From Thermoplasmata archaeon (lineage in GTDB: Archaea > Thermoplasmatota > Thermoplasmata > Lutacidiplasmatales > UBA184): a stretch of 64,000 nucleotides of DNA. Below are positions 32,945 through 63,195 of this stretch, one piece after another (position 1 is the stretch's first letter; each line of letters opens with the position of its first letter). The notes under the pieces are model-generated. The model searched no databases and had not been told where the DNA came from. It worked only from the letters and a program-made list of their open reading frames with translations. The stretch covers positions 9,009 through 73,008 of the forward strand of contig DAHUXZ010000004.1 in NCBI GenBank assembly GCA_027315455.1, given 5' to 3'. Both the position numbers and the translations under genes were made by a program.

Positions 32945-33718
32945 TCAGAGTAGGTTGGTGAAGGAACGCTGGAGCAGGCTCAACGTCCGGTCCTCGACGC
33001 CCTTCGGGTCGACGGAGAGGACCACCGTCGACCCCGTCGCCTGCGCCGTCTGGGTCGCCCAGGCGACGAACCGCAGCATCGGGTCGACGCCGTGCTCCGT
33101 CGCCATGATCTCGAAGACGTCGAGGTAGACGAGGGCGCCGCCGGGTCCCTCCATCGCGGCGCGCAGACGGCCCGAGAGGTCCGTCGGCGAGGTCGGGCCG
33201 GTCGCGCCGGGGCCGACCCGCAGGACGGTGAGACGCCCCGGGTCGATGCCCGGAAGCGCGGGGGGCCGGAAGCTCGCGACCAGGAGACGGGGGTAGGCGG
33301 CCCCGTTCGCCTCGACGAACGCGACGGCGCGCAGGGGGCGCTCCTCCCGGAAGAGATAGCTCTCCCCGGGGGAGAGGACGGGGACGACCCGCTCCCCGGG
33401 GGCGGGACGCGCGGCCGCGGGGACGAGGGGGGCCGGAGCCGGGGGCCGGAAAAGGGCGCTCCAGCTCGGCTGGCGGGGGGGACCGGTGAGGCTGCGGCGC
33501 TTGAGCTCGACGTCGTCCCGGAGGCGGGCGAGCCGGCTCTCGATGAGCATCCGGAGCTCCTGGACGGTGTGGCCGCGCGCGGCGTGCCCGAGGACCTCGC
33601 GCAGCGCCTCCCGTAGGCCTTCGCCGTACCCGTCCGCGTACGCCCGGGCGAACTCATCGTCGGCCCCGGGGTCGGGCCGGCGGGGGCCGTTCCCGTTCGA
33701 CGGGGACGGGCCGCTCAC
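32945..33718 (-). CDS. DUF835 domain-containing protein
   Basis: The C-terminal ~140 aa (SPGESYLFREERP...VYLDVFEIMATEHGVDPMLRFVAWATQTAQATGSTVVLSVDPKGVE) resemble the archaeal DUF835 pattern. The call rests on my recollection of the family. Confidence 0.5.
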   Translation of the reverse strand: MSGPSPSNGNGPRRPDPGADDEFARAYADGYGEGLREALREVLGHAARGHTVQELRMLIESRLARLRDDVELKRRSLTGPPRQPSWSALFRPPAPAPLVPAAARPAPGERVVPVLSPGESYLFREERPLRAVAFVEANGAAYPRLLVASFRPPALPGIDPGRLTVLRVGPGATGPTSPTDLSGRLRAAMEGPGGALVYLDVFEIMATEHGVDPMLRFVAWATQTAQATGSTVVLSVDPKGVEDRTLSLLQRSFTNLL

Positions 33719-34206
33719 GCCCGCGCGGCCCCGGCCCCGGGACCCGGGGCTACCGGGGCCGTCCCGCGGGGCCCGCGGGGCGCCGGGGCCGCGCCGCCGC
33801 TGTCCGCCGGGGCGAACTTGTAGCCGTAGTGGATGACGCCGGCCCGGCCGTCCTCGCGCAGCTTGCGGAAGGTGGCCCGTACCTTGAGGCCGATCCGGAC
33901 CGTGTGCGGGTCGACGTCGACGACCTGACCGGTGAGCGTCGGGCCTTCGCGGGTCCGCACGAGGGCGACCACGTACGGGACCTGCATCTCGAAGCCCTCG
34001 GCGGCGTCGTGGACGACGGAATAGGTGATGACCTCGCCCTCACCCGAAAGCTGGAACGGCTCGAGCTTGCCGATCGACTGGCGGTGCGTCGAGCAGGTCG
34101 GGCAGACCGACCGGGGCGGGAAGTACACCGTCCGGCAGTTCGTGCAGCGCGACCCGCCGAGGTTGTAGCGTCGGGGCGTCTCTCTCCAGAATCGTGCGAT
34201 CGCCAT
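33715..34206 (-). CDS. DUF35 OB-fold/zinc-ribbon protein (scaffold of the archaeal thiolase/HMGCS complex)
   Basis: CTNCRTVYFPPRSVCPTC ribbon plus an OB fold. It sits immediately downstream of the thiolase and HMG-CoA synthase genes. Confidence 0.85.
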   Translation of the reverse strand: MAIARFWRETPRRYNLGGSRCTNCRTVYFPPRSVCPTCSTHRQSIGKLEPFQLSGEGEVITYSVVHDAAEGFEMQVPYVVALVRTREGPTLTGQVVDVDPHTVRIGLKVRATFRKLREDGRAGVIHYGYKFAPADSGGAAPAPRGPRGTAPVAPGPGAGAARA

Positions 34207-34219
34207 GACACTCCTCCGT

Positions 34220-35389
34220 TCAGTTGACCCTCTCGAGCAGGTGGACGACGCTCGTCGCCCCCGTGCCTCCCACGTCGTGGAGGAGGCCGAGGTTCGTCGC
34301 GGGGGCCTGCCGTTCCTTCGCCTCGCCCCTCAGCTGGCGGACGACCTCGACGGCCTGGGCGACGCCCACGGCCCCGAACGGGCAGCCCTGCGCCTTGAGC
34401 CCACCGGACGGGTTGACGGTGAGCTTCTGGCCCAGGGCGAACTGGCCCGCGGCGAACGCGGGTCCGCTCTGGCCCTTCGGCACGAAGCCGAGGTCCTCGA
34501 GCGCGAGCAGCGCCGAGATCGTGAAGCCATCGTGGACCTCGGCGACCCCGACGTCCTCCGGCGCCCGCCGCGCCTGGGCGAACGCCCGCTTCGCGGCGAC
34601 GACCGTCGAATCGATCGTCGTGAGGTCCCGGCGATGATGGAGCGCCATCGTATCGCAGGCGACCTGGCTGGCCACGATGCGGATGGGGGTATCGGTGAAC
34701 TTGCGCGCCCGCTCGAGCGGGCCGAGGACGACCGCGGCCGCCCCGTCGGAGAGCGGGGCGCAGTCGAGCATCCCGAGCGGTTCCGCGACCGGCGTCGCCC
34801 GGAGGACCTGGTCGAGCGTGAGGCGGTTGCGGTAGTGGGCGTTCGGGTTCTTCGCCCCCATCTCGTGCGCCTGGACGGCGACGCTCGCGAGCGCCTCGCG
34901 GGTGGTGCCGTAGTCGTGCATGTGGCGACGGGCCATCATCGCCCAGAGGGCGGGCAGGGTCGCCCCGAAGACCTCCTCCCACTCGTGGTCCGCCGTCGAA
35001 TTGATGATGCGGTTCGCCTCGGTGTCGGCGACATCGGTGAGCTTCTCCGCCCCGCCGACGACGACGAAGTCGTGCGCCCCGCTCGCCACGGCGAGGTATC
35101 CCTGGTGGAGGGCGAGCGCCCCGGAGGCGCCGCCGCCCTCGATCCGGACCGCCTCGAGGTGGTGGCCGGCGAGGCCGGCGTAGTCGAGGATGAGGGGCGC
35201 GATGTGCTCCTGGTCGATCAGCGAGCCGCTGGCCATGTTGCCCATGTAGAGCGCGCCGAGGTCCCCGCTCGAGAGCTTCGCGTCGACGAGCGCCTGGAAG
35301 CCGGCTTCGATCCCGATCTCCCGGAACGACCGGTCCCAGAGCTCGCCGAACCGCGTCATCCCGGCGCCGAGGATCGCGACCTCGCGCAT
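34220..35389 (-). CDS. Archaeal-type acetoacetyl-CoA thiolase
   Basis: SCP-x-like thiolase fold. C-terminal block GGLKAQGCPFGAVGVAQAVEVVRQLRGEA. Confidence 0.9.
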   Translation of the reverse strand: MREVAILGAGMTRFGELWDRSFREIGIEAGFQALVDAKLSSGDLGALYMGNMASGSLIDQEHIAPLILDYAGLAGHHLEAVRIEGGGASGALALHQGYLAVASGAHDFVVVGGAEKLTDVADTEANRIINSTADHEWEEVFGATLPALWAMMARRHMHDYGTTREALASVAVQAHEMGAKNPNAHYRNRLTLDQVLRATPVAEPLGMLDCAPLSDGAAAVVLGPLERARKFTDTPIRIVASQVACDTMALHHRRDLTTIDSTVVAAKRAFAQARRAPEDVGVAEVHDGFTISALLALEDLGFVPKGQSGPAFAAGQFALGQKLTVNPSGGLKAQGCPFGAVGVAQAVEVVRQLRGEAKERQAPATNLGLLHDVGGTGATSVVHLLERVN

Positions 35390-35391
35390 CG

Positions 35392-36444
35392 TTACGTCCC
35401 CCCCATGTGGATCTTCCCGCGGTACTTCGCGTACGTCGCGTAGTTCAGCTCGATGCCCTGGTCGAGATACTCCTGGACCGGAAGACCGTAGCTCCGGTCG
35501 AACCGGGCGATCTCGTCCGTCGTCTCGATGTCGAACGCGTCCGAGCCGGCGCCGCTCCCGTAGCCGACGACGAGGATCCGCTGGCCGGGGGCGGCGCGGT
35601 CGAGGACGTTCGCGAGGCCGAGGAGGGCGGCCCCGGAGTAGGTGTTGCCGATGTAGGGGGTGACGAGGCCGTAGCGCATCTGCTCGTCGGTGAACCCGAG
35701 CTGCTTACCGATGCGCTGGGGGAACTTCCCGTTCGGCTGGTGGAAGACGACGTGGGCGTAGTCGCGCGGCGTCGTGCCGACCTCCTCCATGATGCGCCGG
35801 GCGCACTCGCCGACGTGGCGGAAGTAGGCCGGCTCGCCGGTGAAGCGGCCGCCATGGCTCGGGTAGCGCTGGCCCTCGCGGCGCCAGAAGTCGGGCGTGT
35901 CGGTCGTGTAGGAGAGGGTGCGGTGCACCTGCGCGATCACCCGTTCCCTCCCGATGACGAGCGCCGCGCCGCCCGCGCTCGCGCTGTACTCGAGCGCGTC
36001 TCCCGGGGCGCCCTGCGACGTGTCGGAGCCGATGGCGACCCCGTAGCGGATCATCCCCGAGGCGACGAGGCCGAGGCACGTCTGGATCGCCGCCGTCCCC
36101 GCCTTGCAGGCGAACTCGAAGTCGGCCGCCGTCAGGTTCGGGGTCGCCCCCACGGCCTGCGCCACCACGGAGGCCGTCGGCTTGACCGCGTAGGGGTGGG
36201 ACTCGCTCCCCACGTAGATCGCCCCGAGCTCCTGCGGGTCGATGGCCCCGCGGAGGAGCGCCGTCCGCAGCGCCTCGGTGCTGATCGTGATCGTGTCCTC
36301 GTCCGGCGCCGGCACGCTCTTGCGGTGGACGTTCAGGCCCTGGCCCATCGCCGTCCCGTCGGTCCCCCAGACCTTCCCGATCTCCTCCGGCGTGATCCGG
36401 TAGCGCGGCACGTAGGCGCCGTAACTCACGATCCCTGCGTCCAT
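35392..36444 (-). CDS. Hydroxymethylglutaryl-CoA synthase (archaeal)
   Basis: Conserved blocks [20 protein letters not shown] and HQPNGKFP. First gene of the HMGCS-thiolase-DUF35 trio. Confidence 0.9.
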
Positions 36445-40513: not shown

Positions 40514-41806
40514 TCAGGCCCCCTGGAGCGCGACGGTGGCGGCGGCGAGGCCCGCCGAACCCATGACCAGCGCGGCGTCGGTCGGGGCGAACGTGGCGCT
40601 GTGGAGGGTGGCCGGAGCGGCGGCGGTCCCGGTCCCGAGGAACAGGAGCGTTCCGGGAACCCGCTCGAGGTAGCGCGAGAAGTCCTCCGCGCCGAGGACG
40701 GGCCGCTCGAGCTCGCGGACCGCCCGCTCGCCGAACTCCTCGGCGAGCCCGCTCACGACCACTTCGGTCGCGGCGGGGGAATTGACGGTCACCGGGTAGC
40801 CCCGCCGGTAGACGATGCGGACCCGCGCGCCCAACCCGGCGGCAAGGGCGCGGACGCGGCGACGGAACGCGCGTTCCATGAGGTCGCGGGTCCCCGGGCT
40901 CAGCGTGCGGACCGTGCCCTCGATGACCACCTCGTCCGGGAGGATGTTGTGCCGGGTGCCCCCGTGCACCGACCCGACGCTCACCACGACCGGGTCGAGC
41001 GGGTCGCGCACGCGGCTCACGAGCGCCGGAAGACCCGCCACGATCTCGGCCGCGGCGAGGATCGCGTCCGGACCGCGATGGGGGTAGGCCGCATGCCCGC
41101 CGCGGCCGAGGACGGTGACGCGGAAGCGGTCCGCGGCCGCCATGATCGGTCCCTTGCGCCAGCCGTAGCTGCCGAGGGGGAGGCCCGGCTCGACGTGCTG
41201 GCCGAGGACGTAGTCGACCGGGGGGTCGTCGAACGCCCCCCGCTCGAGGAACGGCGCCGCGCCGCCCCGTTCGCCATCCTCCTCCGCGGGCTGGAAGATC
41301 AGCTTGACCGGGCCGGCGAGCGAGGAACGGCGGGCGAGGAGCGCGGCCGCGCCGAGGAGACAGGTCATGTGGACGTCGTGGCCGCACGCGTGCATGCGCC
41401 CCCGGCGGGTCGAGGTGAACGGAAGTCCCGTCGCCTCGGTGACCGGGAGGGCATCCATGTCGGCCCGGACGGCGACCACCGGCCCCCGCCGGTCGCGGCC
41501 GATCACCCCGAGGACGCCGGTGAAATCCGGGTACGTCGTCGCGGGGATCCCGAGCTCGCCCAGGATGCGCACGAGGCGGTCCCGGGTCCGTCGCTCCTCG
41601 TTCGCGAGCTCCGGGTCGCGGTGGAACTCTTCGCGCCAGCGCTTGAGCCGCGGAAGGAGGCGACGCGCTTCGCGCGAGAATGGGCCGGACCGCGGCGGCA
41701 CGCTCGGGTGGGAGACCCCGAACGGTATATGACGGGAGGCGGCGATGGGCCCCACGGTCTCCGCACGGCGGTGGGCCCGGCGCCGGAGCGGGGGGGCAAA
41801 ATACAT
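40514..41806 (-). CDS. M20D-family amidohydrolase (N-acyl-amino acid amidohydrolase/hippuricase-like)
   Basis: Metal-binding block MHACGHDVH and the typical HRDPELANEE start region. The start is uncertain: the ATG at 41806 sits only a few nt from the TATA-like island, and the GTG at 41755 is an alternative. Confidence 0.8.
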   Translation of the reverse strand: MYFAPPLRRRAHRRAETVGPIAASRHIPFGVSHPSVPPRSGPFSREARRLLPRLKRWREEFHRDPELANEERRTRDRLVRILGELGIPATTYPDFTGVLGVIGRDRRGPVVAVRADMDALPVTEATGLPFTSTRRGRMHACGHDVHMTCLLGAAALLARRSSLAGPVKLIFQPAEEDGERGGAAPFLERGAFDDPPVDYVLGQHVEPGLPLGSYGWRKGPIMAAADRFRVTVLGRGGHAAYPHRGPDAILAAAEIVAGLPALVSRVRDPLDPVVVSVGSVHGGTRHNILPDEVVIEGTVRTLSPGTRDLMERAFRRRVRALAAGLGARVRIVYRRGYPVTVNSPAATEVVVSGLAEEFGERAVRELERPVLGAEDFSRYLERVPGTLLFLGTGTAAAPATLHSATFAPTDAALVMGSAGLAAATVALQGA

Positions 41807-41808
41807 AG

Positions 41809-41818
41809 TTATTTATAG
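41809..41818. promoter_or_regulatory. AT-rich island (TTATTTATAG) in the divergent amidohydrolase/dnaK spacer
   Basis: The longest AT-rich stretch I noticed in the window (about 41797-41820). It lies about 75-80 nt upstream of the dnaK ATG, which is itself preceded by GGAG. Confidence 0.45.
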
Positions 41819-41891
41819 TAACGCAGGCTTACACTTGCTGTAAAGTCGGGTGCGAGGGCTCTGTCCCTCCTCGCCCGCCGGAGTTCACCGT

Positions 41892-52080: not shown

Positions 52081-53436
52081 TCAGCCGCCGCCGGTATAAA
52101 TCCGTCCCCCGGCGCGGCCCCGCCAGGGCACCTCGGGTCCGCGCGGGGCGAGGTGGCGCCTCGCCGACGGGGTGGGGTGGTACTCTCCCGGCGCGGGCGC
52201 GGACGGCGGGGGCCCCGACCGCGCGTGCTCCGGGGCGAAGCGGCGTCGGCAGCCCTCGCAGCGGAACCCGCGCGACGCGCCGAGCGAGTGGGCCGGCCGC
52301 TGACAGCCGGGGCAGAGGGGGGGGAGCCGGGGGCCCCGACGCGGCGCGACGCGCGAGAGGACGATCCCCTCGAGCCGGAACGTCGGGTCCTCGGCCCGAC
52401 CTCCCCAGACCTCGACCCGGTCCCCCGGGGCGAGCTGGCGGGCGATCTGCGGTAGGGTCTTCGTCGGCTCAAACGCGATGCAGTCGAGCCGGTCCCCCGC
52501 CCGGTCCTGGACCGTGAAGGCGATGTGACCACCCGCCAGCGGCCGCGGCGTCCCGACGACCGTCCCGCGGACCCGGCCGGCCGAGTAGGGGGCGAGCGTG
52601 CCGGCGGCGCGACGAAGGAGATGGTCGCCGGTCCCTTGATTGGTCCGGAAGATGACCCAGCGGTCGACCGCCTCGGAGCGCACCGACCGACGGGCCCGGG
52701 GGAGCACCGCGGGGTCGGTCGAGCGAAGTCCGTAGAGGATCGGGCACGCCGTGTGCGGGGCGACGAGCAGACGCCGCGTCCGCCCGTCCGCGCAGAGGAA
52801 GAGCTCCGGGTGCGCCGCCTGCGCCGCGAGCACGCTCGCCCGGCTGACCCGCCGGGGCCGCCCCGTCGTCTCGGGTCGGCGGTAGGCGATGAGCTCCCAG
52901 GTCGACCGGCGGGCCGGCCAGGCGATCGCGGCGGCCGCCCCCACGAGGCCCCGACGCGAACCGGACGTGCGGGATTCGACCCCGGCCGTCGCCACCCACG
53001 GCTCGACCTCGCCGAGCGCCACCTCGTCGCGTACGGCCTTCCAGTACAGACGCTCCGGAAGCCGGCGGGGGCTCACCACCATCGCCGGGTCGACCCGATC
53101 CTCGCCCGTCCGTGCCGTCGCGAGCACCGTCGCCCACGCTTCCTGCGCGAACCCGGCGCGCGCCGACGCGGTCGGCGGGCGGCCGCGCGCGAAGGCGAGG
53201 ACCGGACGGCCGGCGATCCGACCGACGACGCGGGAGGGGCCGACCCCGTGGCCGAACCGGGCCGCCAGCGCCGCGTTCCCCCGGGTCTTCCAGGGGACGT
53301 TGGGGTTGAGCCGGACCAGGCGCGGCTCCCCGAGGAGGTCCAGGCCGCGACCGCGGGCGACGCGCAGCAGCTCGGTGAGGACGTAGGTCGTGCATCCGCC
53401 GCGCGGGCTGTCGGTGTCGTCGATCCCGACCCACAC
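52081..53436 (-). CDS. tiaS: tRNA(Ile2) 2-agmatinylcytidine synthetase TiaS
   Basis: N-terminus MWVGIDDTDSPRGGCTTYV and a C-terminal zinc ribbon CPGC...CEGC. Confidence 0.85.
   Translation of the reverse strand: MWVGIDDTDSPRGGCTTYVLTELLRVARGRGLDLLGEPRLVRLNPNVPWKTRGNAALAARFGHGVGPSRVVGRIAGRPVLAFARGRPPTASARAGFAQEAWATVLATARTGEDRVDPAMVVSPRRLPERLYWKAVRDEVALGEVEPWVATAGVESRTSGSRRGLVGAAAAIAWPARRSTWELIAYRRPETTGRPRRVSRASVLAAQAAHPELFLCADGRTRRLLVAPHTACPILYGLRSTDPAVLPRARRSVRSEAVDRWVIFRTNQGTGDHLLRRAAGTLAPYSAGRVRGTVVGTPRPLAGGHIAFTVQDRAGDRLDCIAFEPTKTLPQIARQLAPGDRVEVWGGRAEDPTFRLEGIVLSRVAPRRGPRLPPLCPGCQRPAHSLGASRGFRCEGCRRRFAPEHARSGPPPSAPAPGEYHPTPSARRHLAPRGPEVPWRGRAGGRIYTGGG
52095..52100 (-). promoter_or_regulatory. 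TATA box (TTTATA on the minus strand) upstream of htpX, inside the 3' end of tiaS
   Basis: AT island 36-41 nt upstream of the htpX ATG (52059). Confidence 0.4.
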
Positions 53437-54340: not shown

Positions 54341-55213
54341 CTACGTGACGCTCTGGATCAGCCGTTCGTAGGCGGCGCGGTTCGGCTCGAGCGCGATGTC
54401 GGTCACCGCGGGCCCCACCCGGTCGGGGAGGAGCTTGAGCTCCAGGGCGGCCGTCTCCGGGTCGACGCTCTTCGGGCGGTGCATCACACCGACCGGGATG
54501 CGCCCGGACTCCATCGTCTCGAGGCAGAGCCGGAAGACCGTCTTGCGGTCCGTGGCGTCGTAGCCCGGCAGCTTGGCCACGTCGACGATCTTCTCGCGCC
54601 AGAGCTTGAACGTGTCATTGTACGTCACGCAGGGTGAGAGGTCCTCGACGAACGCGAAGCCCCCGTTGGCCCGATTGAAGCGGATCGCCTCGGCCAGGAC
54701 CTGCATCATCCCCTTCGGGTCCCCCGAGAACGTCCGGGCGATGAAGTTCGGGACCGGGATCGACAGCGCGGTCAAGATGGCGTCGAACGGGTGCTCGATG
54801 TTCCCTTCGAACCCGATCTGGCTGGTGGGAGACGCCTGGCCCTTCGTGAGCCCATAGGTCTCGTTGTTCATGACGATGTAGAGGATCGAGGCGTTCTTCT
54901 TGAACGCGTGCATGAAGTGGCCCATGCCGATGGCGTAGCCGTCGCCGTCCCCTCCGGCCGCGATCACGGTCAGCCGCGGGTTGGCAAGCTTCACGCCGAT
55001 GGCCTGCGCGAGCAGGCGGCCGTGGAGCGCGTGGATGCCGTTGATCTCGATGAAATTGTGGATCCCTCCCGAGCAGCCGATCCCGCCGACGAGGACCTGC
55101 TCGTGCACCGGGACCCCGACCTCGGCCGCGGCCTTCTTCACCGCCGCGAGGACACCGAAGTCGCCGCACCCGGGGCACCAGGTCGAGGGGATCGGCTTGA
55201 CCGATTGCACCAT
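54341..55213 (-). CDS. 2-oxoacid:ferredoxin oxidoreductase, beta (TPP-binding) subunit
   Basis: WCPGCGDFG N-terminal block and the GGDGDGYAIG TPP motif. Confidence 0.9.
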   Translation of the reverse strand: MVQSVKPIPSTWCPGCGDFGVLAAVKKAAAEVGVPVHEQVLVGGIGCSGGIHNFIEINGIHALHGRLLAQAIGVKLANPRLTVIAAGGDGDGYAIGMGHFMHAFKKNASILYIVMNNETYGLTKGQASPTSQIGFEGNIEHPFDAILTALSIPVPNFIARTFSGDPKGMMQVLAEAIRFNRANGGFAFVEDLSPCVTYNDTFKLWREKIVDVAKLPGYDATDRKTVFRLCLETMESGRIPVGVMHRPKSVDPETAALELKLLPDRVGPAVTDIALEPNRAAYERLIQSVT

Positions 55214-55215
55214 CG

Positions 55216-57003
55216 TCAGGCCTCCGTGACGCGGCCGACGATCTCGGGGGCGCGGAAGGAATGGCCGTCGTACTTGAGGATCGAGCGGAGCTTGCCATGC
55301 TGCTCCGGGAGCGCCTCGCGGATGAGCCGGCCGAACTGGCCGGTGAAGTTGTGCTCGACCACGTAGGCGGCGTCGACGCTGTCCAGGAACGGACGGAGCG
55401 TCTCGGTCGGCACCGGGAAGAGGGTCCGCGCCTGGTAGAACTTCGAGCGGACCCCGCGACGCTCGAGCAGGGACTGGGCCTCCCGGATCGGTCCCCAGGT
55501 GCTGCCGAACCCGATGAGCCCGATGCGCGCCGAATCGTCACCGAAGAGCCGTGGGGAGGGAAGGTCCTCGCGCGCCTGGAGCATCTTGTCCATGCGCTTG
55601 TGCATCATCTTCACCCGGTTCGCCGGGTTCACGGAGACGTGCCCCCACTCGTCGTGCTCGTTGCCCGTGACCTGGGCGAAGGCGCCGGGGGTCCCGGGCG
55701 GCACGTGCGGGGAGATCCCGTCGGGCGTGAACTGGTAGTACTTGTACGTCTCGAGCTTCGCGAACTCCTCCGCGGTCAGCAGCTTGCCGCGATCGAGGCG
55801 CACGCGGGCGAGGTCGACCGGTGCGCTGGTGACCGTGTTCTGCGACAGGGCCTGGTCCAGCAGGAGGAGCACCGGCACGCGCCACTTGTCGGCGAGGTTG
55901 AGCGCGTCGATCGTGAGGTAGAAGCAGTCCTCGACGGTCCCCGGGGCGAGGATGAAGCGCGGGTACTCGCCGTGGCCCAGGTTCGCGAGATGCGACAGGT
56001 CGGACTGCTCGTGGCGTGTCGGCTCGCCCGTCGACGGACCGACCCGCGCGCAATCGGCGACGACGATCGGGAGCTCGGCGGTGCCGGCGTGGCCGATCCC
56101 CTCGGTCATGAGCGAGAGTCCCGGGCCGCTCGTGCTCGTCATGGCGCGGGCGCCGGCGTAGGCCGCCCCGATCACCATGTTGATCGCCGCGAGCTCGTCC
56201 TCGGCTTGGCGGACGATGCCGTGGAACGGCGGAAGGTAGCGCATCAGGTACTCCATGATCTCCGTGGCCGGGGTGATCGGGTAGCCGGCGAAGAACCGAC
56301 CGCCGCCGACGACGAACCCGAGGGCGACCATCTGGTTGCCGGTGGTGAGCACCTGGTCGCGGGCCTCACCGTCGAGGACCACGCTGCGCGGTCCCATGCC
56401 CGCGTCGATCGCCGCCTGGCGGCCGATCTCGAGGGCCTTGAGGTTCTTCTCGAGGGCTTCCGGGCTCCGCCGGCGGAACCGGCCCTCGATCACCTGCCGC
56501 GTGAGCGCCGGGTCGAAACCCAGCATGACCGAGATGGCGCCGTACGCCGCGGTGTTCTTGTAGATCGGGGCACCGAGCTGGCCACCGGCGAGGGTGGCGA
56601 ACGGAAAGCCGACGGCGTTCGGCAGGTCCGAATGGAAGACGGAGGAATCGTAGAGGATCGTCCCGTCCGGCGCGAGCTCCGCGCGGCTCACGTCGACGGC
56701 CTCGCTATCGAACGCGACGATGAGGTCGACCTGCGACTTCATGGCGGCGATCGGTTCCCGGGAGGCGCGAATGGAGGCGTCCGCGTGTCCTCCCCGGATG
56801 CGGGAGAGCACGTTGCGGGAAGTGTAGATGTACAGGCCCTTGAGGCGGAAGTAGCGACCGAGGAGGTCCGAGACGGTCAGCGTCCCGTCGCCGCCCTGGC
56901 CGCCGATCAGCACGGCCAGGTCGCTGAGCTCCTTCGGCCGACGCGCTTCGCCGGGTCCGGATTCCGCAGGGAGGGCCGTGGTGCGGGCAGCAGGGGTCGT
57001 CAT
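55216..57003 (-). CDS. 2-oxoacid:ferredoxin oxidoreductase, alpha subunit (fused gamma+alpha domains)
   Basis: N-terminal gamma-like GGQGGDG block followed by the alpha-domain blocks AGYPITPATEI and TSGPGLSLM. Confidence 0.9.
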   Translation of the reverse strand: MTTPAARTTALPAESGPGEARRPKELSDLAVLIGGQGGDGTLTVSDLLGRYFRLKGLYIYTSRNVLSRIRGGHADASIRASREPIAAMKSQVDLIVAFDSEAVDVSRAELAPDGTILYDSSVFHSDLPNAVGFPFATLAGGQLGAPIYKNTAAYGAISVMLGFDPALTRQVIEGRFRRRSPEALEKNLKALEIGRQAAIDAGMGPRSVVLDGEARDQVLTTGNQMVALGFVVGGGRFFAGYPITPATEIMEYLMRYLPPFHGIVRQAEDELAAINMVIGAAYAGARAMTSTSGPGLSLMTEGIGHAGTAELPIVVADCARVGPSTGEPTRHEQSDLSHLANLGHGEYPRFILAPGTVEDCFYLTIDALNLADKWRVPVLLLLDQALSQNTVTSAPVDLARVRLDRGKLLTAEEFAKLETYKYYQFTPDGISPHVPPGTPGAFAQVTGNEHDEWGHVSVNPANRVKMMHKRMDKMLQAREDLPSPRLFGDDSARIGLIGFGSTWGPIREAQSLLERRGVRSKFYQARTLFPVPTETLRPFLDSVDAAYVVEHNFTGQFGRLIREALPEQHGKLRSILKYDGHSFRAPEIVGRVTEA

Positions 57004-57238
57004 CGGTTTCGTCGCGTCCGGCCCTCGAGAGCCGACCGCGTCCGTTCGATTCGATGCGCGTATTTAACGGTGGGGGCGCGCGGTCCCGGTCGGTGTAAAT
57101 TCCCGCCGGTTCCGGCGCGCCGTCTCCGCGCCTCCCCGAACGGTGGGCGTCGGATGGAGCGGTCGACGACGTACGCTATCGTGGGCCGGCCGTCGGCGCC
57201 GACAAGCCTTATGTCGCATTCACCGTTTCGCCGGCCGA

Positions 57239-58486
57239 ATGGCGGACGCGCCCCTCGTCGAGGACTATCACCGGGCGACGGCGCAGGAGCGACACGTCGT
57301 TGAGCACCTCGAGATCTGGGACGAAACGCTCCGGGACGGCGAGCAGATGCCCGGGGTGCATTTCTCCCCCGAGGAGAAGCTCCGCATCGCCGAGGCGCTG
57401 AGCGACGCGGGCGTCGGCCTGCTGAACGCCGGCATCCCGGTCGTGTCGGAGGAGGAGACCCGGGCCGTGAAGCTCCTCGTGGACGCCGGCCTTCGCGCCA
57501 AGGTCCTCGCCGCCGGCCGCACCGTCCCCGGGGACGTCGACGCGATCATCCGCAGCGGGGCGAAACACGCGGCGATCTTCGTCGCCGCGAGCGACGTCCA
57601 TCTGCGCTACAAGCTCAAGATGACCCGGGAGGCGGTCCTCGACGCGTCGGTCCGGGCGGTGCGGCAGGCGAAGGCGGCCGGGCTCCACGTGGCGTTCGTG
57701 ACGGAGGACACGACCCGGGCGCCGTTCGATTTCGTCGAGCGGTTGTACGCGGCCGTGGTCGAGGAAGGTGCGGACCGTCTCGTGATCGCCGACACGGTCG
57801 GCGTCATGACCCCGCTGACCTTCCGCTGGTTCCTCCGGGAGTTCGCGCGTCGGGTCCATCCCCGGGACTGGTCCGTCCACTGCCACAACGACTTCGGCCT
57901 CGCGGTCGCCAACACGCTCACCGCGCTCGAGGAGGGCGTGACGAGCCCCCAGGTCTGCGTCAACGGCCTCGGCGAGCGCGCCGGCAACGCGTCGCTCGAG
58001 GAGGTCGTGATGGGGCTCGAGGTTCTCTACGGGGTGCGCACCGGCATCGCGACGGAGAAGCTCTACGGCCTCTCCCGGCTCGTGGAGGAGATCGCCGGGG
58101 TGCCCCTGCCCCCCAACAAGGCGCTCGTGGGGTACAATTCCTTCTCGCACGAGGCCGGTATCCACACCCACGGAATCCTCCAGCACACCCTCACCTACGA
58201 GCCGCTCCAGCCGGGGATGGTCGGCCGCGAGCGGCAGATGATCCTAGGTAAGCACACCGGCAAGGCGGCCCTCGTCGAGAAGCTCAAGGAGCGCAAGGCG
58301 AACCCGAGCGACGAACTGCTGGGCCAGCTTCTGCGTCGCCTCAAGCGGGCGAGCGAGAACCACGGTAAGGAGGAGCTGCAGCGCTTCCTCGAGCAGTACC
58401 GGCGGATCTACGCCCGGCCGGGGATCTCCGACGAGGAGTTCTGGCGCTTGGTGGACGACCTCGGGATCCGGACGGAGCGATCATGA
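57239..58486 (+). CDS. Homocitrate / 2-isopropylmalate / citramalate synthase family enzyme (short form, no LeuA-dimer domain)
   Basis: HMGL-like barrel with TLRDGEQ and HCHNDFGLAVANT motifs. Substrate cannot be assigned from sequence alone. Confidence 0.85.
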   Translation: MADAPLVEDYHRATAQERHVVEHLEIWDETLRDGEQMPGVHFSPEEKLRIAEALSDAGVGLLNAGIPVVSEEETRAVKLLVDAGLRAKVLAAGRTVPGDVDAIIRSGAKHAAIFVAASDVHLRYKLKMTREAVLDASVRAVRQAKAAGLHVAFVTEDTTRAPFDFVERLYAAVVEEGADRLVIADTVGVMTPLTFRWFLREFARRVHPRDWSVHCHNDFGLAVANTLTALEEGVTSPQVCVNGLGERAGNASLEEVVMGLEVLYGVRTGIATEKLYGLSRLVEEIAGVPLPPNKALVGYNSFSHEAGIHTHGILQHTLTYEPLQPGMVGRERQMILGKHTGKAALVEKLKERKANPSDELLGQLLRRLKRASENHGKEELQRFLEQYRRIYARPGISDEEFWRLVDDLGIRTERS

Positions 58487-59766
58487 ACCGAAACAACGGG
58501 AACGGCCAGACCTTGGCCGAGAAGATACTGGCCCGCGCCGCGGGCCGCGAAACGCTGGCGCCCGGCGAGATCGTCGAGGGCCGGGTCGACCTGGCCATGA
58601 TGCACGAGGCCGGCGCGCAGACCGTGGGGCCGTTCCACGAGATGGGCGCGCCGCGGGTCTGGGATCCGGACCGGGTGGTCATCGCCATCGACCACTGGGT
58701 TCCGGCCTCGACGGAGAGCGCTGCGGTCCTCCACCGCATCCTGCGGCGGTTCGCGGCGGAACAGCACCTCCCGCACTTCTACGATGTCGGCCAGCACGGC
58801 ATCTGCCATCAGATCCTGGCCGAGAACGGATGGGTCGTGCCGGGCGACCTGGCCGTCGGGACGGACTCCCACACGAACATGCTCGGGGCGGTCGGGGCGG
58901 TCGCCGCGGGGATCGGTCCCACGGAGATGGCCGCGGTCCTCGCCCTGGGCCGCCTCTGGCTCAAGGTCCCGCCGACGCTCCGCATCCGCGTCCGGGGCCG
59001 GCTCGGAAAGGGCGTCACGGCGAAGGACGTCATCCTCCGCATCCTCGGTGAGGTCAAGACGACCGGGGCGACGTACAAGGCGGTCGAGTTCAGCGGGCCG
59101 ACGATCGAAGGGCTCTCGATGCCCGAGCGGTTCACGCTCTGCAACATGACGACGGAGATGGGGGCGAAGTGCGGCATGGTCGCGCCCGATCCGCGGACGT
59201 TCGAGTACCTCGCGTCGACGGCGAAGCATCCGATGCACCCGCTCACGCCCGATGCCGATGCCCGCTACGAGCGCACGGTCGAGATCGACGTCGAGGGGAT
59301 GCCACCGATGGTGGCCTGCCCGTACTCCCCGGACAACGTCCGGCCCCTCCCGGACGTGGCGCGCGAGCACGTGCGGGTCGACCAGGTCTTCCTTGGTTCC
59401 TGCACGAACGCCCGCATCGAGGACCTGCGCGAGGCCGCCGCCCTCATGAAGGGGGCCAAGGTCCATCCCTCGGTCCGTTACATCGTCTCGCCGGCGTCGA
59501 CCGCGATCTATCAGCAGTGCCTGCGGGAAGGGATCATCGACATCTTCACCGAGGCGGGGGCGGTCTTCACGAACTCGAGCTGCTCGGCCTGCTTCGGGGG
59601 GAACATGGGCATCATCGCGCCGGACGAGGTGTGCGCCTCCTCCTCCAACCGCAACTTCCCCGGCCGCATGGGCGCGAAGAACGGACGGATCTACCTGATG
59701 TCGCCGGCCGCGACGGCGGCGGCGGCGATCCGCGGCGAGATCGCCGACCCGAGGGAGCTGCTCTAG
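58483..59766 (+). CDS. 3-isopropylmalate dehydratase / homoaconitase large subunit
   Basis: Aconitase-family blocks, including the Fe-S Cys ligands (GSCTNARIEDL, SSCSACFGG). The ATG overlaps the upstream stop (ATGA). Confidence 0.9.
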   Translation: MNRNNGNGQTLAEKILARAAGRETLAPGEIVEGRVDLAMMHEAGAQTVGPFHEMGAPRVWDPDRVVIAIDHWVPASTESAAVLHRILRRFAAEQHLPHFYDVGQHGICHQILAENGWVVPGDLAVGTDSHTNMLGAVGAVAAGIGPTEMAAVLALGRLWLKVPPTLRIRVRGRLGKGVTAKDVILRILGEVKTTGATYKAVEFSGPTIEGLSMPERFTLCNMTTEMGAKCGMVAPDPRTFEYLASTAKHPMHPLTPDADARYERTVEIDVEGMPPMVACPYSPDNVRPLPDVAREHVRVDQVFLGSCTNARIEDLREAAALMKGAKVHPSVRYIVSPASTAIYQQCLREGIIDIFTEAGAVFTNSSCSACFGGNMGIIAPDEVCASSSNRNFPGRMGAKNGRIYLMSPAATAAAAIRGEIADPRELL

Positions 59767-59779
59767 GCGAGGTCAGGCC

Positions 59780-60292
59780 ATGCAGGATGTCATCACCGGA
59801 CGCGTGTGGGTCCTCGGCAAGGACGTCGACACGGACCAGATCATCCAGGGGAAGTATCTCACGATCATCGACCCGAACGAGCTCGCCCAACACGTGCTCG
59901 AACTCGTCATGCCCGAGTTTGCCAAGGAGGCGAAGCCCGGGGACATCGTCATTGCGGACGAGAACTTCGGGTGCGGCTCGAGCCGCGAGCACGCCCCCGC
60001 GGGCTTCAAGGCCCTCGGGATCGGGGCGATCGTCGCGGACTCCTTCGCGCGGATCTTCTTCCGCAATACCATCAACCTCGGGGTCCCGGCGATCGAGGCG
60101 CGGGGCGTGCGCGCGATGTTCGAGGCCGGGGACTCGGCCCGCATCGAGCTGAAGGCGGGCCGCATCACGAACCCGCGGACGGGCGCTACCCTGGCGTTCT
60201 CCCCCCTGCCCGAGCATCTCCTCGGGCTCCTCGAGGCGGGCGGGCTCGTCGAGAAGGTCCGCGCCGAGCTCCGGGCGAAGGCCGACGCATGA
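59780..60292 (+). CDS. 3-isopropylmalate dehydratase / homoaconitase small subunit
   Basis: GKDVDTDQIIQGKYL... and ENFGCGSSREHAP blocks. Confidence 0.9.
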   Translation: MQDVITGRVWVLGKDVDTDQIIQGKYLTIIDPNELAQHVLELVMPEFAKEAKPGDIVIADENFGCGSSREHAPAGFKALGIGAIVADSFARIFFRNTINLGVPAIEARGVRAMFEAGDSARIELKAGRITNPRTGATLAFSPLPEHLLGLLEAGGLVEKVRAELRAKADA

Positions 60293-61422
60293 GCTCCGCC
60301 GGCTACCGCATCGTGCTCCTTCCCGGCGACGGCACCGGGCCCGAGGTCATCGCCGAAGGGCGAAAGATCCTGGACACCCTCGCCGAGGGGGACGCCGCGC
60401 CCTGGCGGCTCGAGGAGCACGCGGGCGGGGGGCAGTACTACCTTGCCCACGGGCGGGAGTGGGAACCTGAGGCGGAGGCCGCGACGCGGGCGGCCGACGC
60501 GATCCTCCTCGGGGCTGTCGGGTGGCCCGGCGCGCGGCTCCCCAACGGGGACATGGCGGGCGGGGCGCTCGTGCTCGGTCTGCGCTCGCGCCTCGACCTC
60601 TTCGCGAACGTTCGCCCCTGTCGTCTCTACCCGGGCGTCCTCCACCGCATCAGCGGGGAGTACCGCCAGGTGTGGGACCCGAAGCACGTGGACATGGTCA
60701 TCGTGCGGGAGAACACCGAAGGGCTCTACACCCCCGCCCGGGGGGTGCTCCGGAGGGCCGACGAGACCGAGGTCGCCGTCGACACCCGGATCATCACGAA
60801 GAAGGGCGCCGAGCGGGTGATCCGCTACGCCTTCGACCTCGCGCGCGCCCGGCCCCGGGGCGCCCCCGAGGACGGCACGCGGCGGGTGACGTGCGTCGAC
60901 AAGTCGAACGTCCTCGAGGGCTGCCGCTTCTTCCGCTCGACGTTCGACCGGATCGCGAAGGAGTATCCCGAGATCGAACTCGACTATGCCTACGTGGACG
61001 CGTTCACCCAGTGGATCGTCCGCAATCCCGAGCGCTACGACGTCGTCGTCTCGACGAACATGATGGGGGACATCATCACCGACCTCGCCAGCGTTCTGCA
61101 GGGCGGCATGGGGTTCGCGGCCGGCGGGAACATCGGCACCGACCACGCCATGTTCGAACCGGTGCACGGGAGCGCGCCGAAGTACGCGGGCCAGCACCGT
61201 GTCAACCCGTTCGCGACGTTCTTCGCCGTTGAGATGCTCCTCCGGTGGCTCGGGGAGCGGCGCGCGGACGGCCGCCTCGTCCGCCAGGCCGACCGTCTCG
61301 AGGCCGCGATCGCCTCGACCCTGGCCCGGGGCGACGCCCGGACCTACGACCAGGGCGGCGCGGTCACGACGACCGGGGCGGGGGACCGGCTCGCTGAGGC
61401 GATCCGGGGGATCCCCCGATGA
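60289..61422 (+). CDS. Isopropylmalate / homoisocitrate / tartrate dehydrogenase family enzyme
   Basis: [20 protein letters not shown] and [12 protein letters not shown] blocks. The ATG overlaps the upstream stop. Confidence 0.85.
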
Positions 61423-62600
61423 GCGCCCGCCGGGACGTCGCGGTCGTCGGCGGCGCCACGGTGAAGTTCGGGATCCGGCCGGCGACGTGGCCCGAGCTCG
61501 CCCAGGAGGCCGGGCTCGCGCTCTTCCGCGCGGTCCCCGCGCTCGCGTCGGCCGACGTCGACTCGTTGTTCGTCGGCGCGGCCGAGCCCGAGCGCTTCGC
61601 GTTCCAGTCGCATGTCGCCCCGCTCGCCGCCGAGCAGATGGGGCTCACCCCTCACCGCATCCTGCAGCGGACCGAGCTCGCGTGCGCGTCGGGCCAGTCG
61701 GCGATCCGCAGCGCCTACGCGGCGATCGCCTCCGGGCTCAGCGACGTGGCCGTCGCCGTCGGGGTCGAGAAGATGAACCTCCCCTCGATGGCCGAGGCGA
61801 ACACCGCGATGGCCTGCGTGATGGACCGCCCGTGGGACGGCGTCCACGGGGCGACGGCGCCCCCGTTCTTCGCGATGGTCGCGCAGCGCCACATGCTCGA
61901 GTACGGGACGACCGAGGACCAGCTCGCGGCGGTGTCGGAGAAGAACCATCGGTTCGCGAACGCGAACCCGACGGCCCAGTTTCACGAGAAGACGTTCGCG
62001 CGGGAGAAGCTCCTTAGCCTTCCGCTCGTCGCCCCGCCGCTGCGCCTCGGCGACTGCTCGTCGATGACCGACGGGGCGGCCGCCGTCGTCCTCACGTCCG
62101 GCGAGCTCGCCCGGCGCTACACCGACTCGCCGGCGTGGATCCGCGGCTCCGGCCAGTACTCCGACTTCCACAATCTGGCGAACGCCGGCTCCCTGACCGA
62201 CTGGGTCGGCCTCCGCCGGGCGGGCGCCGAGGCGTTCCGGTCGGCCGGGATCACCCCGGGCGACCTCGACATGGCCGAGCTCCACGACTGCTTCACGATC
62301 TCGGAGATCGTGGAGTACGAGGCGCTCGGCCTCTGCCCGAAGGGCGAGGGGGGGCGCTTCGTGGCCGACGGGCGGTCGGACCTCGGCGGCGACCTCGTGG
62401 TGAACCCGCGCGGGGGTCTCCTCGGCTGCGGGCACCCGCTCGGGGCAACGGGGGTCGCGCAGGCCGTCGAGGTCTTCGAGCAGTTCGCGCAGAAGGTCGA
62501 CCCGCGGCGCCAGGTGCCCGACCCCCACTGGGCGCTCGTCCACAACCTGAGCGGGAGCGCCAACGTCCATTCGTTGATGGTCTACGAGCGGGGAGGCTAG
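61419..62600 (+). CDS. SCP-x/archaeal-type thiolase-like protein
   Basis: Thiolase fold (ACASGQSAI active-site Cys region; GGLLGCGHPLGATGVAQAVEVFEQ). The ATG overlaps the dehydrogenase stop (ATGA). Confidence 0.85.
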   Translation: MSARRDVAVVGGATVKFGIRPATWPELAQEAGLALFRAVPALASADVDSLFVGAAEPERFAFQSHVAPLAAEQMGLTPHRILQRTELACASGQSAIRSAYAAIASGLSDVAVAVGVEKMNLPSMAEANTAMACVMDRPWDGVHGATAPPFFAMVAQRHMLEYGTTEDQLAAVSEKNHRFANANPTAQFHEKTFAREKLLSLPLVAPPLRLGDCSSMTDGAAAVVLTSGELARRYTDSPAWIRGSGQYSDFHNLANAGSLTDWVGLRRAGAEAFRSAGITPGDLDMAELHDCFTISEIVEYEALGLCPKGEGGRFVADGRSDLGGDLVVNPRGGLLGCGHPLGATGVAQAVEVFEQFAQKVDPRRQVPDPHWALVHNLSGSANVHSLMVYERGG

Positions 62601-62601
62601 C

Positions 62602-63105
62602 ATGACCGAGGCGGCCGTCGAGCTGGCGAAGAAGAAGCGACCGGTCGAGGCGGCGCCGTCGGCGACCGGGGCGGCGTCCGTCCCGTTCCTGCTCGACTTC
62701 TATCCCCTCGAGCGCGACGATCAGACCCGCCTCGCCCGGTTCTACGCGGCGCTCCGGGACGGCCGACTCACGACCACCCGCTGCCGCCGCGATGGCGGCC
62801 TCCTCTGGCCCCCGAGGACCGTCTGCCCCCGGTGCCACGACGACGCCCTCGACTGGGTCGACCTGCCGATGCGCGGGCAGATCTACGCGTTCAGCGCGGT
62901 CCTCGCCGGTGCCCCCCTCGGCATGGAGGGCGAGGTCCCGTTCGTCGTGGGCCTGGTCGACCTCGACGGAGCGCCGTTGCGCCTCTTCGGCCGGATCGAG
63001 GGCACGCCGTGGACCGGGGTGCGGATCGGCCAGGCGGTGCGGGTCGAGGCCTACACGATCCCGGACGGCCGCGTCTTCTACCGCTTCCGGATGGACGGCC
63101 GCTGA
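62602..63105 (+). CDS. DUF35 OB-fold/zinc-ribbon protein
   Basis: C...CPRC ribbon (CRRDGGLLWPPRTVCPRC) plus an OB-fold region. It starts 1 nt after the thiolase stop. Confidence 0.8.
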   Translation: MTEAAVELAKKKRPVEAAPSATGAASVPFLLDFYPLERDDQTRLARFYAALRDGRLTTTRCRRDGGLLWPPRTVCPRCHDDALDWVDLPMRGQIYAFSAVLAGAPLGMEGEVPFVVGLVDLDGAPLRLFGRIEGTPWTGVRIGQAVRVEAYTIPDGRVFYRFRMDGR

Positions 63106-63140
63106 GCCCGGGCGCCGTCGCGGGCCGTCCGAGTGAAGTC

Positions 63141-63148
63141 TATTTATA
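63141..63148 (+). promoter_or_regulatory. TATA box (TATTTATA) upstream of the AglB-like gene
   Basis: AT island 48-55 nt upstream of the ATG at 63196. Confidence 0.45.
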
Positions 63149-63195
63149 GACCCCCTTGGTCTCGCGCGCCGCCGTCAGGGGAAGGTCTCTCATCG

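Follow-up and report, generated by a model that had tools for sequence, protein, structure and literature searches.

A conserved, translationally coupled unit of six plus-strand genes, g1-g6 (57239-63105), joins a 2-oxoacid elongation module (g1-g4) to a thiolase/DUF35 pair (g5-g6) in an uncultured archaeon of the Thermoplasmata (Lutacidiplasmatales type) found in mine drainage and acid soil (Table 1). The window that we analyzed is the whole 64-kb stretch of DNA carrying these genes. Our preferred explanation, to which we give just short of an even chance, is that the genes form one real operon in which two independent units, linked by acetyl-CoA, were fused in the ancestor of one Thermoplasmata family.

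Table 1. Features of the six-gene locus, its flanks and a paralogous gene set within the window
Feature	Coordinates	Strand	Basis or remark
Second thiolase/DUF35 pair	33715-35389	-	Placed behind HMG-CoA-synthase-like gene 35392-36444
2-oxoacid:ferredoxin oxidoreductase (OFOR) beta subunit	54341-55213	-	Pfam TPP_enzyme_C + PFO_beta_C
OFOR alpha subunit (gamma-alpha fusion), divergent from g1	55216-57003	-	Pfam POR + POR_N + PFOR_II
Divergent spacer, AT-rich TATA-like boxes at 57060-57068 and 57094-57101	57004-57238	.	A/T-stretch scan
g1, LeuA/CimA/HCS-family 2-alkylmalate synthase, short form without regulatory domain	57239-58486	+	HMGL-like + HCS_D2
g2, isopropylmalate/homoaconitate-type dehydratase large subunit	58483-59766	+	Pfam Aconitase
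g3, dehydratase small subunit, isopropylmalate/citramalate-isomerase-like	59780-60292	+	Aconitase_C
g4, beta-decarboxylating dehydrogenase, LeuB/TtuC type	60289-61422	+	Iso_dh
g5, archaeal SCP-x-type 3-ketoacyl-CoA/acetoacetyl-CoA thiolase	61419-62600	+	Thiolase_N + Thiolase_C_1
g6, DUF35 (zinc ribbon + OB fold), thiolase partner	62602-63105	+	zf-ChsH2 + OB_ChsH2_C
AT-rich TATA-like box TATTTATA between g6 and AglB/STT3 gene	63139-63150	+	A/T-stretch scan

Pfam domains and direct reading of the junctions bear out the gene content, order and boundaries given by an earlier sequence-only reading: ATGA overlaps lie at 58483, 60289 and 61419, g2 and g3 are separated by a 13-nt gap containing a GAGGT motif, and g5 and g6 by a single nucleotide. 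The g1-g6 order is present in 80/80 species-level relative loci and is shared by five genera of the host family, and the 4-nt overlaps are retained at g1/g2 (70 of 73 loci), g3/g4 (78 of 81) and g4/g5 (80 of 81); the arrangement is therefore real and not due to chance. Conserved synteny had been named as a check on the original claim, and this check does not refute it, as the thiolase/DUF35 pair is in place in all 80 close-relative loci. The statement that no described pathway joins the two gene sets is supported: a literature text search found no paper linking 2-oxoacid elongation genes with thiolase/DUF35 genes.

Scanning the 64-kb window revealed AT-rich promoter-like boxes on both flanks and none within 57239-63105, a pattern that, together with the conserved overlaps, indirectly supports a single transcript spanning g1-g6. 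Stretches with at least 7/8 A/T number 11 in the window; two of these fall in the divergent spacer upstream of g1, where the boxes may function as promoters, and the box downstream of g6 likely marks the operon's 3' limit. Transcribed divergently from the g1-side spacer is an OFOR that the first reading overlooked, syntenic with g1-g6 in 62/80 loci and likewise in further genera of the host family. Its alpha subunit exceeds the cut-off of NCBIfam OAFO_sf (591 bits) and has as its top PDB match 6N2N, which we take to be a 2-oxoglutarate enzyme; PorB_KorB-type NCBIfam matches to the beta subunit fall below cut-off.

By their domains, g1-g4 belong, as first proposed, to the LeuA/LeuCD/LeuB-family module, with the same four enzyme families in the same order as the LeuA-LeuCD-LeuB pathway and the Methanocaldococcus jannaschii citramalate route (CimA, MJ0499/MJ1277 and LeuB). 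Unlike the synthases of those routes, g1 (415 aa) carries the catalytic HMGL-like TIM barrel (PF00682, E 4e-73) and post-barrel subdomain (PF22617, E 2e-20) with no LeuA_dimer (PF08502) match in the Pfam search, an absence that does not by itself exclude IPMS activity since short forms exist among archaeal relatives. It also misses all NCBIfam equivalog cut-offs (best NF002085, 433 vs 517 bits, and TIGR02090, 421 vs 485). Aligned with Neisseria meningitidis LeuA (3RMJ), its pocket reads A/A/V/V/A at the equivalents of what we take to be E. coli LeuA L73/H97/S139/N167/P169, a combination matching no characterized LeuA, CimA or HCS. Among the other genes, g2 exceeds the cut-off of NCBIfam PRK00402 (556 bits), the genome having just one further aconitase-family gene, on contig C14, and g4 has a below-cut-off top NCBIfam match to PRK03437 (3-isopropylmalate dehydrogenase).

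An alternative that we consider very unlikely is that g1-g4 encode homocitrate synthase, homoaconitase and homoisocitrate dehydrogenase, making 2-oxoadipate for LysW-type lysine synthesis or for catabolism through glutaryl-CoA (by the OFOR), crotonyl-CoA and acetoacetyl-CoA to two acetyl-CoA (by the thiolase). In the Thermus thermophilus enzyme, the distal carboxylate of 2-oxoglutarate is bound by His72 and Arg133; these columns hold His and Arg in Sulfolobus acidocaldarius HCS (6KTQ), whereas g1 has Ala at both positions and 19 g1 orthologues likewise have A or S in these columns. The LVLGLR motif of g4 places Leu, an IPMDH-type hydrophobic residue as in LeuB, at the position that we take to be Arg85 of T. 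thermophilus HICDH. Nearest to g3 is MJ1277, the M. jannaschii IPM/citramalate isomerase small subunit (3VBA, 172.7 bits), well ahead of the homoaconitase small subunit 2PKP (112 bits), and its recognition loop is YLTI, as opposed to YLVY and the homoaconitase-type YLRT; lack of the loop Arg does not, however, keep a Pyrococcus horikoshii small subunit from serving homoaconitase (PMC7308503). The small-subunit loop had been singled out for checking in the sequence-only reading. Overall, the specificity residues of the module are non-polar, resembling the isopropylmalate/citramalate rather than the homocitrate/lysine type.

Genomic context gives the homocitrate alternative some support: LysA of the DAP route scores above cut-off in just 4/31 family genomes, and 16/18 genomes of the genus carry a LysW-LysX-LysY-LysZ-LysJ cluster, with g1 as their sole LeuA/HCS-family gene. 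The OFOR's closest solved relative, 6N2N, and the thiolase's ancestral partners, HBD and crotonase, would also suit it, the latter through the crotonyl-CoA branch. Yet the LysW cluster adjoins argininosuccinate lyase, suggesting arginine synthesis, and LysX was not found in 7/7 genomes of genera g15-g18 nor in this genome, all of which keep the module. A separate leu-type set elsewhere in the genome, raised as a possibility at the outset, was not found: g1-g4 are the sole LeuA/LeuCD/LeuB-type set and g1 the sole LeuA-like copy, with one LeuA-like gene per genome in the relatives examined. In contrast to the leucine and citramalate routes, the module is fused to thiolase/DUF35 genes, and the family genomes searched gave no above-cut-off matches to AHAS (0/31), IlvC (0/31) or IlvD (0/25), the enzymes that would supply or use the module's substrates. 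The module therefore cannot make leucine from pyruvate; branched-chain aminotransferase (BCAT) is present in 5/5 family genomes. The absence of AHAS, IlvC and IlvD had escaped the first reading.

The best solved relative of g5 and g6 is the archaeal thiolase/HMG-CoA synthase/DUF35 complex (6ESQ/6ET9), which shares their thiolase-DUF35 order: the acetoacetyl-CoA thiolase 6ESQ is the top PDB match of g5, and g6 matches the DUF35 chain 6ESQ_E (E 8e-8). Aligned to 6ESQ_A, g5 keeps the ACASG, HDCF and GHPLGATG motifs with the nucleophilic Cys and His, invariant in 25 orthologues, and is predicted to be a catalytically intact beta-oxidation-type 3-ketoacyl-CoA/acetoacetyl-CoA thiolase; g6 follows the g5 orthologue in every locus examined. 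Membership of a mevalonate complex is rejected, as g5/g6 adjoin no HMG-CoA synthase; the true trio is the paralogous set already recognized at 33.7-36.4 kb, whose thiolase (34220-35389) sits in a different tree clade. The BbsAB benzoylsuccinyl-CoA thiolase is likewise a two-gene thiolase and DUF35 unit, but g5 and g6 are not members by NCBIfam score (204 and 39 bits vs cut-offs of 750 and 250). Sulfolobus ketothiolase/DUF35 pairs offer a possible analogy, in that such a pair works outside mevalonate synthesis and a genome holds several of them, though the g1-g6 operon, unlike that system, has no reductase or dehydratase gene.

Phylogenetically, g5 groups with thiolases heading HBD-ECH clusters (clade support 100/99). 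Its orthologues and those of g6, 55-64% identical, lead thiolase-DUF35-3-hydroxyacyl-CoA dehydrogenase-crotonase clusters in the Thermoplasmatota families f16, f22 and f30 and in families of other classes (counted as five; named f37, f54, f60 and f67), and in f24 are followed by a crotonase (hydratase) alone. These arrangements, which span eight or more further families of the phylum, appear to represent a beta-oxidation pattern, whereas host-family g5/g6 have lost their HBD/ECH neighbors and are translationally coupled to a LeuB-type gene. The module is present and the g5 orthologue absent in f27, and g5/g6 are present and g4 absent in f16 and f30; the two halves are thus phylogenetically separable and evolve independently. 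Their direct fusion is restricted to one family. The tight coupling noted by the sequence-only reading is real, but its inference of a shared pathway is weaker than it looks, given the beta-oxidation-type orthologue clusters, the separable distributions and the confinement of the fusion to one family.

These independent distributions would also fit an absence of any functional link, with g5/g6 moved behind g4 by rearrangement or by loss of the genes between them in a streamlined genome of ~1.8 Mb and kept by inheritance and read-through. Collinearity within the family extends to the whole neighborhood, the OFOR and the unrelated AglB gene included, so synteny alone is weak evidence. In f22, f24, f47 and f56, g4-like genes lie 1.4-15 kb away from g5/g6 orthologues; this variable linkage, with unrelated intervening genes, resembles a decaying ancestral neighborhood, and equally hints at an older, possibly selected association. 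We nonetheless consider the absence of a link unlikely, if the least improbable of the alternatives: the g4/g5 start/stop overlap persists across genera just 64-70% identical in these proteins, and in genus g15, where a 1.9-kb insertion parted g3 from g4, g4 and g5 remain coupled. The spacing between g6 and the AglB/STT3 gene (ATG at 63196), by contrast, varies freely among relatives (median ~65 nt, maximum 881 nt).

At the other extreme, the operon might encode a dedicated, undescribed route, in which the module's 2-oxoacid would be converted to an acyl-CoA by the OFOR and then condensed with acetyl-CoA by the thiolase/DUF35 pair, or a downstream product cleaved; examples would be pyruvate to 2-oxobutyrate, propionyl-CoA and 3-oxovaleryl-CoA, or primers for thiolase-based fatty-acid synthesis. 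This we also judge improbable, although several observations that favor it sit uneasily with our preferred fusion of independent units. The g4/g5 overlap in 80/81 species exceeds the coupling usually needed for mere co-regulation, and the g4-like genes near g5/g6 orthologues in four other families also weigh against that fusion. An OFOR adjoins the module in both f1 and f22, as a hand-over from 2-oxoacid to acyl-CoA would predict; in the host family it is transcribed away from g1 and its synteny is conserved, and f22 has the same-strand order module, acetate-CoA ligase, four-subunit POR-type OFOR and thiolase-DUF35-HBD-ECH. The OFORs of f1 and f22 differ in type, however, so the association is not orthologous. 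The unmatched g1 pocket is unusually hydrophobic and built of small residues, but an identical pocket occurs in families without the fused thiolase. Scaffolding of thiolases to other enzymes is a known role of DUF35 (bioRxiv 10.1101/2024.07.05.601840), and the module is kept despite the missing ilv genes; against this, the halves occur separately in f27, f16 and f30, the operon lacks a ketoreductase or dehydratase gene, and all of the enzymes center on acetyl-CoA, so that their clustering may be generic.

We propose that, in the fused operon that we favor, g1-g4 would most likely lengthen a salvaged 2-oxoacid by one carbon, a role suggested by the missing AHAS, IlvC and IlvD, the presence of BCAT and the non-polar substrate determinants. 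The likeliest reaction would take valine-derived 2-oxoisovalerate to 2-oxoisocaproate and leucine, with pyruvate to 2-oxobutyrate a possible alternative; retention of a valine-to-leucine route would, however, be surprising in a lineage that scavenges peptides and does not make valine. A new pathway common to both halves is possible. In the fusion that we prefer, g5 with its DUF35 partner g6 would carry out beta-oxidation-type thiolysis, and no intermediate would pass directly between g1-g4 and g5-g6. Instead, acetyl-CoA released by thiolysis may be used by the g1 synthase, linking the two units through this shared metabolite and through co-regulation.

The six-gene coupled operon is confirmed: domain searches bore out six plus-strand genes of the families claimed in the sequence-only reading at 57239-63105, and the sequence itself bore out the junctions it had listed: ATGA overlaps at 58483, 60289 and 61419, plus gaps of 13 nt before g3 and 1 nt before g6. 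The 13-nt gap contains a GAGGT motif. Gene order is also conserved in relatives: it is the same in the 80 species-level loci found via the thiolase, as far as contigs reach, and across five genera of the host family. The 4-nt start/stop overlaps are kept at g1/g2 in 70 of 73 loci, at g3/g4 in 78 of 81 and at g4/g5 in 80 of 81, and the spacer between g6 and the gene after it, AglB/STT3, has no fixed length among relatives. In one genus, an insertion of ~1.9 kb splits g3 from g4 and leaves the g4-g5-g6 coupling intact (loci L171:6124-8038 and L173:9175-11163). Two further loci from relatives' genomes show split alignments, of the g1 orthologue in G099 (two pieces with overlapping query ranges; L172:11050-12494) and of the g4 orthologue in G013 (two pieces in different frames; L021:361-1495), which frameshifts, small duplications or errors of assembly might explain.

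Features of the operon and of the divergent 2-oxoacid:ferredoxin oxidoreductase (OFOR)
Feature	Position	Strand or orientation	Description
g1	within 57239-63105	+	HMGL-like + HCS_D2 synthase, 415 aa, without LeuA_dimer domain
g2	within 57239-63105	+	aconitase-family, large subunit
g3	within 57239-63105	+	dehydratase small subunit
g4	within 57239-63105	+	dehydrogenase, Iso_dh family
g5	within 57239-63105	+	thiolase
g6	within 57239-63105	+	DUF35 (zinc ribbon + OB fold)
OFOR alpha subunit	55216-57003	divergent from g1	
OFOR beta subunit	54341-55213	divergent from g1	

Promoter-like boxes were sought by counting stretches in which 7 or more of 8 bases are A/T, which are rare in the 64-kb window (only 11; G+C ~72%). 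Two lie in the 235-nt spacer 5' of g1, another, TATTTATA, lies between g6 and AglB, and the same count finds none inside the operon; we infer from the sequence that g1-g6 would be read as one transcript. Several of these stretches sit just 5' of gene starts (for example 41798-41821, 52094-52102, 57060-57101 and 63139-63150), and they may provide a usable TATA-box map for this G+C-rich archaeon. AglB/STT3 most likely starts at ATG 63196, ~45 nt 3' of its box, and not at GTG 63133 of the ORF list. The spacer 5' of g1 is common to a divergent two-subunit OFOR, overlooked in the sequence-only reading and syntenic throughout the host family. A second alpha-beta OFOR, 37% identical to the operon-side enzyme, is encoded elsewhere in the host genome (G000 contig C1:44292-49833; L188:4292-9833), after a fused ADP-forming acyl-CoA synthetase; such a synthetase with an OFOR is the arrangement by which archaea gain ATP from 2-oxoacids.

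A check for separate leu-type genes revealed that g1-g4, the elongation module, form the genome's sole LeuA-type, LeuCD-type and LeuB-type set; all further aconitase-family and Iso_dh-family genes are distant paralogues. By predicted specificity, several lines place the module in the non-polar (isopropylmalate/citramalate) class, not the homocitrate/lysine class. In the synthase g1, Ala stands at both of the columns that are occupied by His and Arg in Sulfolobus acidocaldarius homocitrate synthase (6KTQ), which we take to be Thermus thermophilus His72 and Arg133, binders of the distal carboxylate. At the LeuA-pocket columns, presumably L73/H97/S139/N167/P169 in E. coli numbering, g1 reads A/A/V/V/A, a pocket unlike that of any characterised enzyme and common to g1 orthologues in four families. 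The dehydrogenase g4 carries Leu, as in LeuB, at the homoisocitrate dehydrogenase specificity position, which we assume to be T. thermophilus Arg85. The small subunit g3 scores 172.7 bits against that of Methanocaldococcus jannaschii isopropylmalate/citramalate isomerase (3VBA) versus 112 bits against that of homoaconitase (2PKP), and its recognition loop reads YLTI (YLVY in 3VBA, YLRT in 2PKP), with the caveat that a Pyrococcus horikoshii small subunit without the loop Arg is still able to serve homoaconitase (PMC7308503).

These residues of g1, g3 and g4 speak against assigning the module to the lysine (AAA) route, a reading that draws on the presence of LysW/LysX genes in most of the genus (a LysW-LysX-LysY-LysZ-LysJ cluster in 16 of 18 genomes) and on the rarity of LysA (4 of 31 genomes). 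The Lys cluster also has argininosuccinate lyase (ArgH) as its neighbour, and genomes in which no LysX turned up still keep the module: searches found no LysW/LysX cluster in the host genome's assembly (1.98 Mb, 94% complete) or in any of seven genomes from four sister genera. Since the operon is kept in these genomes, a lysine role is argued against as the reason for keeping the module; we down-weight the AAA reading, and consider a 2-oxoadipate role for the module highly unlikely. The relatives' cluster, in G002 (contig C1; L125:4391-10236), runs ArgH-LysW-LysX-LysY(ArgC)-LysZ(ArgB)-LysJ(ArgD), and its LysW is 53 aa long with C-terminal EDWGE.

Leucine synthesis starting from pyruvate fares no better as an explanation. 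With all controls positive, searches of 25 family genomes and of another six from the genus turned up no IlvD, IlvC was found in 0 of 31 genomes, and AHAS above cut-off in 0 of 31; leucine from pyruvate via the module is therefore impossible, and 2-oxobutyrate is not convertible to isoleucine. Branched-chain aminotransferase is present in all five of five genomes, making valine-derived 2-oxoisovalerate an available substrate. What remains puzzling, and is the most interesting part of these data, is that a lineage without ilv genes conserves a sole-copy ‘leucine’ module whose synthase pocket is unmatched.

The second half of the operon, the thiolase/DUF35 pair g5/g6, has a different set of relatives. 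The catalytic Cys and His motifs are preserved in the thiolase g5, which among solved structures comes closest to the archaeal acetoacetyl-CoA thiolase from the thiolase/HMG-CoA synthase/DUF35 complex, and g6 matches the DUF35 subunit of that complex. The host genome encodes six or seven thiolase paralogues, and the HMG-CoA synthase trio previously noted at 33.7-36.4 kb is indeed a separate set. In a maximum-likelihood tree, the operon thiolases form one clade (support 100/99) with those of four other families of the phylum (f16, f22, f24 and f30), separate from the mevalonate-linked clade. The g5 orthologues in these four families are 55-64% identical and always precede a DUF35 orthologue; 3-hydroxyacyl-CoA dehydrogenase (HBD) and enoyl-CoA hydratase (ECH) genes follow in f16, f22 and f30 and, among 14 orthologue loci in other classes, at five, and ECH alone follows in f24. 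The orthologue context of g5/g6 is thus of beta-oxidation type, in agreement with the fatty-acid and branched-chain amino-acid catabolism described for the order in the Lutacidiplasmatales genome paper (PMC9287336), which mentions beta-oxidation and propionate use as well. Of other candidate identities, BbsAB is ruled out for the pair by NCBIfam scores far under cut-off, and a steroid Ltp2-type aldolase is set aside for g5, whose catalytic Cys is present. In family f24, two thiolase genes lie no more than ~10 kb upstream of the module (L157:2-2480, L166:184-1335, L186:1043-2218), and at least one of them precedes a DUF35-like ORF; one is the g5 orthologue, and the other is a 41-43% paralogue 3.6 kb from g1.

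Are the two halves linked? An obligate link is counted against by their separation elsewhere (family f27 has the module in 6 of 7 genomes and the thiolase orthologue in 0 of 7; the thiolase pair occurs in f16 and f30, which lack a g4 orthologue), by the restriction of direct module-thiolase fusion to the host family, and by the collinearity of the whole neighbourhood there, unrelated AglB gene included. Some link is nevertheless favoured by the near-universal g4/g5 overlap, by g4-like genes on the same strand near the thiolase orthologue in four other families (at 1.4 kb in f47 and 2.7 kb in f56, with unrelated intervening genes, ~7 kb in f22 and ~15 kb in f24), and by the gene string of f22, in which acetate-CoA ligase, a four-subunit POR-type oxidoreductase and then thiolase-DUF35-HBD-ECH come after the module. 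We regard a neutral fusion of halves without a link as unlikely. The f22 cluster in G075 (L164:5007-17201 with L181:2553-6073) spans ~19 kb, mostly on one strand, in the order LeuA-like, LeuC, LeuD, LeuB-like, acetate-CoA ligase, POR gamma/delta/alpha/beta, GNAT, methyltransferase, thiolase, DUF35, HBD, crotonase, with one methyltransferase on the opposite strand; it looks like an ‘acetyl-CoA hub’.

A link could run through a single, undescribed route, in which the host-family module would lengthen a 2-oxoacid, the adjacent OFOR would convert it to acyl-CoA, and thiolase/DUF35 would extend or cleave the product (Claisen/retro-Claisen). Module, oxidoreductase and thiolase enzymes all turn around acetyl-CoA, and the oxidoreductases of the host family and f22 are of different types; we consider this route about as unlikely as the neutral fusion. 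Complex prediction for thiolase, DUF35 and g4 (an alignment each, g4 as partner) gave no support and is not evidence either way. A literature search for isopropylmalate synthase with DUF35 returned nothing related to the operon, and the Lutacidiplasmatales genome paper (PMC9287336) does not mention the operon or its genes. As the most economical reading we tentatively propose, at a little under an even chance, a family-specific fusion of an isopropylmalate/citramalate-type module acting on salvaged 2-oxoacids with a beta-oxidation-type thiolase/DUF35, linked by acetyl-CoA that one half would make and the other would use.

The enzyme families of the operon are ordinary; the sole-copy module and its coupling are the points of note. 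Archaea of the host family are widespread in soil and mine drainage: the relatives of the host genome are MAGs labelled ‘Thermoplasmata archaeon’ that come from acid-sulfate soils, from peat and from mine drainage, and the region was found in nine runs, all DNA, from mine-drainage and soil metagenomes. Genome-based metabolic models would mis-score the module as ‘leucine biosynthesis’. If module, OFOR and thiolase do act in sequence, they would form a new connection of 2-oxoacid and acyl-CoA metabolism, bearing on how short acyl chains are made or remodelled in archaea; otherwise, the operon would be a clear example of conserved translational coupling between separate pathways with only acetyl-CoA in common.
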